Source: a virus
Taxonomy: Duplodnaviria; Heunggongvirae; Uroviricota; Caudoviricetes
Direction: 5' to 3' (one strand)
Virus record (IMG/VR): IMGVR_UViG_2695420372_000015
DNA length: 7,681 nt
Shown here: positions 114 to 3,100 of the stretch, one piece after another
Position numbering within the stretch: the stretch's first letter is position 1
How the letters are laid out: each line of letters begins with the position of its first letter
Made by a program: the position numbers

Positions 114-3100
114 TGACGGTTTATTAACCCGGACGGGCACCTCAGGAGGTGCCTTTTTTATTGACTGAAAACGAGAGGTCATCATGCGACATTTATACGG
201 AGCCATTTTATTCTGGACCGCACTGCTGACAGGCATTTCCCTTCCTGCACAAGCTAAAACCGGACACGGTGCATTTTCTGTGGGGTACACACAGGTGCAC
301 CCGGACGGTACGCCGGGGCTTTCCGGTACCGGCATCAGGGCCGGCGATCTGAAAGGGATTAATGTGAAATACCGTTATGAGTTCACGGATCACCTGGGCG
401 GCATTGTCGCGCTGAGTTATGCATCGGTGAAGAAAAGTGACACGATGAAGACGGGTGAAAATACCTTCCATTATGAAAGCCTGCGCGGTCGTTATGTCAG
501 TCTGATGGCCGGCCCTGTCTGGCAGCTCAGTGAGCGGGTCAGTCTCTATGGCATGGCCGGGATGGCGTACACCCGCTGGTCTGACAGTGTTCAGGATTAC
601 CGGCGTGATGAAGTGAAACCGGGGTATGTGAAGGAGACCACCACCGCCAGTGATGGTCATACTGCGCGTCATCTGTCGCCGGCCTGGAATGCCGGGATTC
701 AGTTCAGTCCCGTAGAGACGGTGGTTATTGACCTTGCTTATGAAGGTTCCGGCAGTGGCGACTGGCGCACTGACGGGTTCATCGTGGGTGTTGGCTATAA
801 ATTCTGATTAGCCAGGTAACACAGTGTTATGACAGCCAGCCGATTCAGGCGGGCTTTTTTGTGGGGTGAATATGGCAGTAAAGATTTCAGGTGTACTGAA
901 AGACGGTACAGGAAAACCGGTAGAGAACTGCACCATTCAACTGAAAGCCAGACGGACCAGCAGCACGGTGGTGGTGAACACGGTGGCCTCTGAAAATCCG
1001 GATGAAGCCGGTCGTTACAGCATGGACGTTGAGTACGGTCAGTACAGCGTCATTCTGTTGGTGGAAGGATTCCCGCCATCACATGCCGGAACAATCACAG
1101 TGTATGAAGATTCTCAACCCGGTACGCTGAATGATTTTCTCGGTGCCATGTCGGAGGATGACGTCCGGCCGGAGGCACTGCGTCGTTTTGAACTGATGGT
1201 GGAAGAAGCGGCGCGTAACGCAGAGGAGGCGAAGAAGAATGCCGGAGAGGCGGAGACATCAGCGAGGAATGCCGGCATATCAGCCAGTCAGGCAGAAGAG
1301 AACGCTGCAAATGCTGACACTTCAGCAGGGGATGCATCGGAGTCAGCCCGGCAGGCGGCAGAAAGTGCAGCCGCTGCAAAGCAGTCAGAGGAGGCGTCCT
1401 CGTCCTCGGCCTCTGAGGCCGCTCAAAAAGCCAGTGAGTCATTACAAAGTGCAGCAGATGCTGAGTTGTCAAAAAAGACGGCAGAAAGTGCAGCCGGTAA
1501 TGCAGCCAGGGATGCAACGACCGCAACAGAAAAAGCCCGGGAGTCAGCAGAAAGCGCACAGTCAGCGGAACAAAGCAGGATAGCGGCGGAAGAAGCCGTA
1601 AACCGAATCCCGACCGTGGTGGGGCCTCCCGGGCCAAAGGGGGAACAGGGGCCCGCGGGTCCTCAGGGGCCGAAGGGAGATAAAGGAGAGCGTGGCGACA
1701 CCGGCCCGGCAGGGGCAACCGGTGAACGGGGGCCGGCAGGTGATGCTGGTCCGGCAGGCCCGCAGGGGCCGAAAGGCGACAGGGGAGAGCGGGGAGAGAC
1801 CGGTCTGACGGGAAATGCAGGTCCACAGGGTCCAAAGGGAGATACCGGTGCGGCAGGCCCGGCAGGCCCACAGGGACCGAAAGGAGAAACAGGTGTGGCT
1901 GGCCCGGTAGGGGCAACCGGACCTCAGGGGCCGAAGGGCGACCCGGGGGAGACGCAAATACGGTTCCGTCTGGGGCCGGGAAACATTATTGAGACAAACA
2001 GCCATGGCTGGTTCCCGGATACAGATGGCGCACTCATCACCGGACTGACCTTTCTTGACCCCAAAGATGCCACACGGGTTCAGGGTTTTTTTCAGCATTT
2101 GCAGGTCAGGTTTGGTGACGGGCCGTGGCAGGATGTTAAGGGGCTGGATGAAGTGGGCAGTGATACAGGCAGAACAGGAGAATGACATGAACATACTAAA
2201 AAAACTTATGCAGCGTCTGTGCGGTTGCGGAAAGCATGATGGCCGTGAACACGGGCAGTCGCTTACAGTACAACTGCGACTGGGGCCGGCAGACATCCTG
2301 GAGTCAGATGAGAATGGCATTATTCCGGAGCAGGCCAGGGTAATCACGCAGGTGGTGATACTGGATGCGGATAAAAAGCAGATACAGTGCGTGGTAAGAC
2401 CGCTGCAAATCCTGCGTGCTGACGGGACGTGGGAAAATATTGGCGGAATGAAATAGCCGACAGCTTCACAAAACCGGAGTCCGGCTCCGGTTTTTGTTGT
2501 CATGTCCGGTGGATGTTTGTTAGGAAAGCAAAGATGGCAAAACTGCTGGAGGTTTTGTGGTTGAGTATGCCAATATAATTAATAGATTAAAGAGTTAGTT
2601 GTGAAGAAAATATGGATAAACAGGACGACGAATGCTTTCACCGATAAGGACAACTTTCCATAACTCAGTAAATATAGTGCAGAGTTCACCCTGTCAAACG
2701 GTTTCTTTTGCAGGAAAGGAATATGAGTTAAAGGTCATTGATGAAAAAACGCCTATTCTTTTTCAGTGGTTTGAACCTAATCCTGAACATTTCAGCATTT
2801 GCAGGTCAGGTTTGGTGACGGGCCGTGGCAGGATGTTAAGGGGCTGGATGAAGTGGGCAGTGATACAGGCAGAACAGGAGAATGACATGAACATACTAAA
2901 AAAACTTATGCAGCGTCTGTGCGGTTGCGGAAAGCATGATGGCCGTGAACACGGGCAGTCGCTTACAGTACAACTGCGACTGGGGCCGGCAGACATCCTG
3001 GAGTCAGATGAGAATGGCATTATTCCGGAGCAGGCCAGGGTAATCACGCAGGTGGTGATACTGGATGCGGATAAAAAGCAGATACAGTGCGTGGTAAGAC

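Follow-up and report, generated by a model that had tools for sequence, protein, structure and literature searches.

The collagen-like prophage side tail fibres EPclA and EPclB end in PfC (Pfam PF06820, Phage_fiber_C), a trimerisation domain that is able to re-nucleate the collagen helix (Ghosh et al. 2012; PMC3368898). In other fibre units, the last gene encodes a Tfa protein (Caudo_TAP, PF02413) or a DUF4376 protein, and the type of this protein follows the type of the fibre tip. Small chaperones that embrace or cap the fibre tip are also encoded directly downstream of the fibre gene in Pam3 (gp25) and in the systems of the Alteromonas A5/V22 chaperones, where binding to the distal end of the fibre trimer has been proposed or shown, with a 3:3 stoichiometry in Pam3 (PMC9608196; PMC10579305). 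In the Shiga toxin (Stx)-converting phages phi24B and 933W, the fibre gene for gp61 (EPclB) is followed by a small open reading frame (ORF; ST933Wp60, or 'gp59'), and the phi24B fibre, homologous to the one described below, has been resolved as six lateral fibres (preprint 2026; 10.64898/2026.04.10.717836). A small gene of this kind, referred to here as PfC', is found in a 7,681-nucleotide stretch of viral DNA (IMG/VR record IMGVR_UViG_2695420372_000015, called the window in what follows), which represents the right end of a lambdoid prophage from an attaching-effacing E. coli. PfC' encodes an 89-residue, free-standing homologue of the tip of the fibre encoded by the preceding gene, stf (side tail fibre), and there is little doubt that the gene is real and functional and is inherited together with the fibre. 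No discussion of the stand-alone protein was found in the literature searched, in which PMC12309495 treats proteins downstream of the central spike.

The Stf protein of the window (872..2185, plus strand) is of the EPclA type, with an N-terminal PfN domain (PF08400), a coiled coil, collagen repeats (PF01391) of 111 residues and PfC, and it agrees with EPclA in architecture and length (Ghosh et al.; PMC3368898). An ORF lister begins the gene at GTG 866 (439 residues), and a start at ATG 872 gives a product of 437 residues that opens with MAVKISG. Published EPclA proteins and cloning primers begin at the ATG equivalent to 872 (PMC3368898), and this ATG, not GTG 866, is probably the true start. 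The PfC domain of Stf lies at residues 365-428 in the 439-residue numbering (1958..2149, plus strand). PfC' (2187..2456, plus strand) consists of a basic leader of 27 residues (MNILKKLMQRLCGCGK...) and a stand-alone PF06820 domain (residues 28-89; nucleotides 2268-2453). A lipoprotein or signal-peptide function of the leader (LCGCG) was considered and rejected, as the leader lacks a hydrophobic core, has charged residues ahead of the Cys, and has a Cys pair that is not kept in Salmonella (CLSGGDK).

PfC' resembles the PfC of EPclA and EPclB in matching the same Pfam model over its full length, in being beta-rich by prediction and in directly adjoining PfC in the same prophages. It differs from them in standing free of a collagen shaft behind its own basic leader, in being only ~32% identical and in falling in a separate clade. 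With Tfa and the DUF4376 proteins it shares the slot at the end of the fibre unit; unlike these, to which it has no sequence similarity, it is half their size or less and is homologous to the tip that it presumably serves. It is placed like Pam3 gp25 and the A5/V22 chaperones, whereas its fold and family are unrelated, its binding to the fibre is a matter of supposition, and the A5/V22 chaperones resemble intramolecular chaperone domains where PfC' resembles a mature tip domain. The small protein of phi24B and 933W is the same protein as PfC' (>90% identical, with the same TGAcATG junction), although their fibre differs from the Stf of the window in its length of 645 residues, its two collagen stretches and its place on a short-tailed virion.

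The resemblance between the 89-residue product and the C-terminal domain of Stf was proposed in the first-pass annotation of the window and is borne out by every comparison made. BLASTP aligns residues 28-88 of PfC' with residues 365-427 of Stf, with 20/63 identities (32%), 60% positives and E=3e-10. The Smith-Waterman score of the pair is 96, against 23.8 +/- 4.0 and a maximum of 51 in 5000 shuffles (z=17.9). Both proteins match the full PF06820 model (1-64/64) at ~1e-34 each, PfC' with 118.9 bits and Stf with 120.7 bits, where the gathering threshold is 25 bits. PfC' also matches the 89-position profile of PHROG phrog_576 ('tail fiber protein') over 1-89/89 (2.2e-59), and RefSeq names it 'phage tail fiber C-terminal domain-containing protein', with near-identical database entries numbering in the thousands. 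Pfam, RefSeq and PHROGs already record this homology. PfC' departs from the typical setting of the PF06820 family, the C-terminus of a prophage tail fibre protein, in being free-standing with its own Shine-Dalgarno sequence and ATG; the domain is still C-terminal inside the 89-residue protein, and databases already hold similar stand-alone members.

Over 186 codon-aligned bases, PfC' and the tip of stf have 52.7% nucleotide identity, and their longest identical run is 10 nt. These values point to an old paralogy and not a recent copy, as the annotation had also held. Between E. coli and Salmonella, the proportion of synonymous differences (pS) within each paralog is 0.58-0.86, which is at or near saturation.

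Two readings of this paralogy were offered at first: that PfC' is a separately expressed fibre-associated protein, or that it is a displaced alternative tip module, a leftover of recombination. In its strict form, the second reading would leave PfC' with no function of its own, kept only by its linkage to stf. The surroundings of the gene lend the second reading some colour. The region is prone to recombination, and many singleton chimeras unite PfC' with Lom, J, CII or other fragments; these look like prophage decay. One in-frame fusion of collagen and PfC' sequence also exists (P0066, 4 sequences), joined at an 11-nt microhomology (GGGGCCGGCAG). It is a rare collagen-ORF deletion fusion whose contig starts inside the gene, so that it is not confirmed as a full-length Stf. 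Furthermore, the stf-PfC' pair persists in a dead prophage remnant of Citrobacter rodentium, and a run of seven A near the PfC' start is a run of six in two lineages. A survey for Stf alleles with a C-terminus of the PfC' type, however, found none, P0066 excepted, in 226 clusters from databases and in the 90 representatives that an exhaustive search returned. The PF06820 domains over all database clusters form two discrete groups, with at least ~80% identity within groups, 27-39% between them and no intermediates, a pattern that does not fit a pool of exchangeable tips. The 'distant' matches were considered as intermediates and rejected as frameshifted or low-quality sequences.

The sequence history of the gene itself argues further against a leftover. 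Selection was estimated from 80 IMG/VR loci together with prophage and phage loci, and PfC' is intact in 81 of ~90 copies (65 DNA alleles, 37 protein variants). The ratio of nonsynonymous to synonymous substitution rates (dN/dS) is 0.13 for PfC', with 0.085 in the domain and 0.29 in the 27-residue leader. When these alleles are translated in the two alternative frames, the ratio is 3.9 and 1.15, and it is 0.25 for the PfC-coding end of stf. PfC' is therefore under frame-specific purifying selection, stronger than that acting on the tip of the fibre itself. There is no decay of the gene, its leader is conserved and is not collagen, and both leader and start signals are kept in a Salmonella ortholog of 64% identity. 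The product has its own PHROG family over all 89 residues, and it has been detected in phi24B virions, as far as the supplement covered here goes. A displaced module is largely refuted by these observations and must be regarded as most improbable; of the initial interpretation, the separate fibre-associated protein and the old paralogy stand and the displaced relic falls.

The start of PfC' is closely tied to the end of stf. The junction (2176..2189, plus strand), as read from the sequence, holds an AGGAG Shine-Dalgarno sequence at 2176-2180, which is 6 nt 5' of the PfC' ATG, the stf stop TGA at 2183-2185 and the ATG at 2187-2189. The 16 bases before the ATG (AGAACAGGAGAATGAC, directly followed by ATG) include the stf stop and are identical in 80/80 copies where the pattern was found. 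A scan for sigma-70-like promoters from lom to nleB2 found none. A terminator-like hairpin with a U-run (2470..2499, plus strand; RNA fold -24.1 kcal/mol, z=-2.4) closes the stf-PfC' module; it is not picked up by a simple consensus terminator scan. In 90 loci compared with one another, homology is lost 45-80 nt beyond the PfC' stop, just past this hairpin. The invariant junction, the absence of an internal promoter in that scan and the hairpin after the stop together indicate that stf and PfC' form one co-transcribed unit, in which PfC' would come last and be coupled to stf in translation.

A run of seven A lies at 2196-2205 (PfC' codons 4-6) and is shortened to six in E. coli O145:H28 RM12581 and in C. 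rodentium. In these copies the first ATG is out of frame, and a start is possible only at Met8. The run could be a slippage hotspot or plain decay.

The same arrangement bears on the view that PfC' is an accessory gene expressed by the lysogen (a 'moron'), for example as a decoy against incoming phages with the same fibre. PfC' does border effector cargo in long-tailed prophages. The gene ECs0845, which by gene order is presumably PfC', was reported as induced 5-fold in one plant-extract transcriptome (PMC4940412). The lack of a sigma-70-like promoter, the coupling to stf and the position ahead of the hairpin all speak against such expression; by sequence, PfC' has neither a signal peptide nor a lipobox and so cannot get to the cell surface; and the PfC' of 933W lies within the tail gene cluster, away from cargo. 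A moron function is accordingly highly improbable.

PfC' could also be made as the C-terminal part of a +1 frameshift fusion, Stf-PfC', with two knobs in series, if a fraction of ribosomes shifted frame, either where stf ends (GAA TGA C, decoded as GAA GAC) or in the last 130 nt. In E. coli as in Salmonella, PfC' occupies the +1 frame with respect to stf, 46 codons of this frame ahead of the PfC' ATG are free of stops, and the TGA-C stop context with an upstream AGGAG loosely recalls the RF2 site. However, the sequence at the stop is GAA TGA C where a recognised site would have CTT TGA C, GAA slips poorly into the +1 frame, and the Shine-Dalgarno sequence is spaced differently from that of RF2 (prfB). 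An open stretch of 46 codons has a chance expectation of ~1 in 8 in such G+C-rich sequence, and the Salmonella junction is wholly different (a 23-nt overlap), the Shine-Dalgarno sequence and the ATG being what is kept. The phi24B authors apparently weighed the same idea, given that in the supplement, as covered here, their search database held hypothetical gp61-gp59 frameshift fusions ('Fusion_6159_FS1/FS2') and the corresponding group was labelled 'Spike or just gp59?'. That part of the supplement contains no junction or alternative-frame peptide, and the normal C-terminal peptide of gp61 is represented in it by 47 spectra. A frameshift fusion is therefore considered very unlikely.

The stf-PfC' pair is widespread. 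Among 5426 complete E. coli genomes, PfC' is present in 698 at 6817 places (median 11 copies) and the PfC region of stf in 697 at 6158 places. The 3' end of stf lies directly upstream of PfC' in 83/90 loci, and the pair occurs in 296 phage records, nearly all of Stx-converting phages. In the short-tailed phage 933W it lies midway in the cluster of tail genes, with the TGAcATG junction unchanged, ST933Wp59 being the fibre and ST933Wp60 an over-extended call of PfC'. Only 90 matches came out of an exhaustive HMMER search over 1.84 billion representatives, one of them a 79-residue Salmonella enterica protein. The Stf encoded ahead of this ortholog is 468 residues long, with PfN, a Phage_fiber_2 repeat and a terminal PfC and without collagen; the two genes share 23 nt, and the ortholog is preceded by an AGGAGG of its own. 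The pairing of PfC' tracks the tip and not the shaft, because this Salmonella Stf lacks a collagen region. The stf-PfC' module transfers as a unit among long-tailed lambdoid prophages, short-tailed Stx phages and Salmonella prophages.

The Salmonella pair also helps to order the events. PfC' of E. coli and Salmonella are 64% identical, the PfC domains of the two Stf proteins are 39% identical, and cross-paralog pairs among the four domains are 31-36% identical. Between the two hosts, dN is 0.30 for PfC' and 0.60 for Stf PfC. It follows from these comparisons that the duplication giving PfC and PfC' is older than the split of the E. coli and Salmonella phage lineages, that both copies have been retained since, and that the free copy is the more constrained of the two.

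Some occurrences lie at the edge of this distribution. In the dead prophage remnant of C. rodentium (loci L006-L009), a 166-residue Stf stub (4479-4979) joins a PfN fragment straight to PfC, with coil and collagen deleted, and is followed by a PfC' of 78 residues with a 4-residue deletion (5001-5237); the neighbours are nleG-like effector genes and lifA/lymphostatin. A scan of genome contigs gave only E. albertii and one 725-nt contig labelled Xanthomonas pisi DSM 18956 (NZ_JPLE01000138.1), which has an E. coli-type stf end and a PfC' of 92% protein identity and is probably E. coli or phage contamination.

What fills the slot after stf was compared in about nine loci whose fibres have the common PfN N-terminus. 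After fibres with other tips comes a Caudo_TAP Tfa (PhiR26_1, HK629, SPF_0923), after EPclC-type collagen fibres a DUF4376 protein (P-EibA, 1720a-02) and after PfC-tipped fibres PfC' (the window, BP-4795, 933W, Salmonella). Tip type thus co-varies with the type of the downstream gene in these loci. In this small sample, the pattern is the familiar one by which assembly proteins match their cognate fibre tips. PfC' has no match to Caudo_TAP (PF02413), as a Pfam scan at E<=0.1 gives PF06820 only, and the true Tfa of PhiR26_1 scores 151.6 bits in a like scan. The Peptidase_S74 profile (intramolecular chaperone) has no Pfam match in Stf or PfC', and phi24B virions contain the normal C-terminal peptide of the fibre.

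The only experimental detection of the PfC' protein that was found is in the phi24B proteome, of whose supplement part was covered here. There, two peptides unique to PfC', ADGTWENIGGMK and VITQVVILDADKK, are reported from purified virions with ~3 spectra each. PfC' is thus made and, on this portion of the data, co-purifies with phi24B virions at a low level. Other PfC' peptides that can be named for mass spectrometry are VITQVVILDADK and LGPADILESDENGIIPEQDR.

A protein that is found in virions after a fibre gene could be a permanent structural tip, its trimer staying at the fibre end as a receptor-contacting piece or an extension. The gp38 protein, which remains on the T2 fibre, is the model for such an arrangement, and a location after the fibre gene would fit an adhesin too. 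In addition, PfC-like units occur in series within one fibre protein: P0242, a 565-residue protein from the exhaustive HMMER search (PF06820, 1.6e-15), has four tandem repeats of ~95 residues followed by collagen repeats, and each repeat closes with a PfC-like motif (VVVLDAD...ILQVRRADGTWxEI), which shows that such units are stackable in series along a fibre. Equal stoichiometry is nevertheless hard to reconcile with ~3 spectra per PfC' peptide and 47 for the comparable gp61 peptide in the same part of the supplement. Receptor-contacting tips are usually the faster-evolving part of a fibre, whereas PfC' evolves more slowly than the Stf tip, both in dN/dS (0.085 vs 0.25) and in identity between E. 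coli and Salmonella (64% vs 39%). Rotary-shadowed EPclA, which was made without PfC', has a complete C-terminal knob (PMC3368898). A permanent tip is therefore judged unlikely.

The AlphaFold2 (AF2) monomer model of Stf PfC reached a predicted local distance difference test score (pLDDT) of 74 in one of five models and is all-beta, in agreement with the circular dichroism data of Ghosh et al. (PMC3368898). Foldseek with this model gave no match at E<=0.001, and phmmer and profile searches for relatives in the PDB gave nothing below E=0.09.

The homology, conservation and synteny observed here, the start site that PfC' has to itself and the occurrence of its product in a virion preparation lead us to favour, tentatively, a role for PfC' as a tip-specific assembly factor or transient cap at the PfC ends of Stf. 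The Pam3 and A5/V22 chaperones offer precedents for such a role. PfC' would be made in step with Stf through translational coupling, would trimerise through its PF06820 domain as PfC does, and would dock on or beside the PfC ends of nascent Stf chains. The docked protein, as chaperone or cap, may help three Stf chains to register, after which PfC would nucleate folding of the shaft, as has been shown for the collagen form, and a small amount of PfC' might remain on the finished virion. A more specific version, in which PfC' is a helper born by duplication of the very domain that it serves, a free trimeric knob that docks on or templates nascent PfC ends as a 'foldon' in trans or a removable cap, is a possibility that we hold to be rather doubtful, together with its variant, in which PfC' stays as a conserved receptor-contact piece of the side fibres of enterohaemorrhagic E. 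coli (EHEC) and Stx phages.

Several points weigh against an assembly factor or cap. Recombinant EPclA and isolated PfC trimerise in E. coli without PfC' (PMC3368898), and PfC' is therefore not strictly needed for trimerisation in vitro. The argument from the slot is based on only about nine loci, and PfC' has no similarity to any known chaperone family in Pfam, where PF06820 is its only match. The low peptide count could come from contamination of the virion preparation, and the text of the phi24B paper is silent on the small protein. The AF2 monomer of PfC' itself, built on 26 aligned sequences, has a mean pLDDT of 49 and is unreliable to the point of being unusable. Binding of PfC' to Stf and trimerisation of PfC' are steps that we infer.

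In the window, PfC' is present twice. An exact tandem duplication of 700 bp gives copy 1 at 2090..2788 (plus strand), comprising the 3' end of stf, PfC', a spacer and the first 156 nt of nleB2, and copy 2 at 2790..3488 (plus strand), with a second PfC' gene at 2887-3156; 699 bases are identical at offset 700, and the junction is at 2789/2790. As was seen at first reading, the duplication places PfC' behind the N-terminus of NleB2. Translation gives a chimeric ORF of 174 residues (2632..3156, plus strand; Pfam SseK_NleB at residues 1-46 and PF06820) that contains NleB2 1-52, 33 residues of the stf 3' end in the +1 frame and then the complete 89-residue PfC'. The NleB2 part would cover any N-terminal type III secretion signal. 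The duplication junction is absent from 5426 complete E. coli genomes, from 90 fetched related loci and from IMG/VR, so that the duplication would be private and very recent, if it is not an artefact of assembly.

The rest of the window consists of lom (184-807), upstream of stf, and type III effector cargo after the small gene: nleB2, a truncated nleC, a frameshifted nleH and nleF. Intact nleB2 (3332..4312, plus strand; PF24688, 598 bits, and RefSeq annotation of the equivalent locus) is the first cargo gene downstream of the fibre module. nleC is cut to 96 codons (4346-4636), nleH is broken by frameshifts into three ORFs (4945-5865), and nleF (5920-6489) is intact, as is nleB2. In E. coli O145:H28 RM12581, the truncated nleC and split nleH are annotated in the same state. 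Between the nleC fragment and nleH, 4659-4790 is a C-terminal remnant of a lambda-type tail fibre assembly gene (tfa), whose O145:H28 equivalent is annotated in RefSeq as 'tail fiber assembly protein, missing N-terminus'; the remnant implies that the nleH-nleF cassette derived from a prophage with a fibre of the stf-tfa type. A 45-nt sequence (TTTTTGTTGTCATGTCCGGTGGATGTTTGTTAGGAAAGCAAAGAT) lies 3' of the PfC' hairpin at 2491-2535 and 3191-3235 and recurs at 4884-4928 with 87% identity, ~95 nt past the 3' remnant of tfa. By its placement it looks like a common 'end of fibre operon' joint for the exchange of effector cassettes. An Rfam scan of the window found no RNA family, and a tRNA scan found no tRNA.

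On homology, this analysis adds nothing to existing annotation; its contribution is evidence for a functional gene of ancient origin whose presence goes with the type of fibre tip. Around ten prophages per EHEC genome and most Stx-converting phages bear side fibres of the PfC-tipped type. If PfC' is a helper that arose from the very tip domain it serves, fibre chaperones would have come about here by a route distinct from the Tfa, gp57A/gp38 and intramolecular-chaperone routes. If PfC' is required for building or capping the tip, this would explain the unassigned 'gp59' peptides in the phi24B virion proteome, and co-expression of PfC' would be needed when such fibres are used for collagen biomaterials, phage engineering or the search for receptors.

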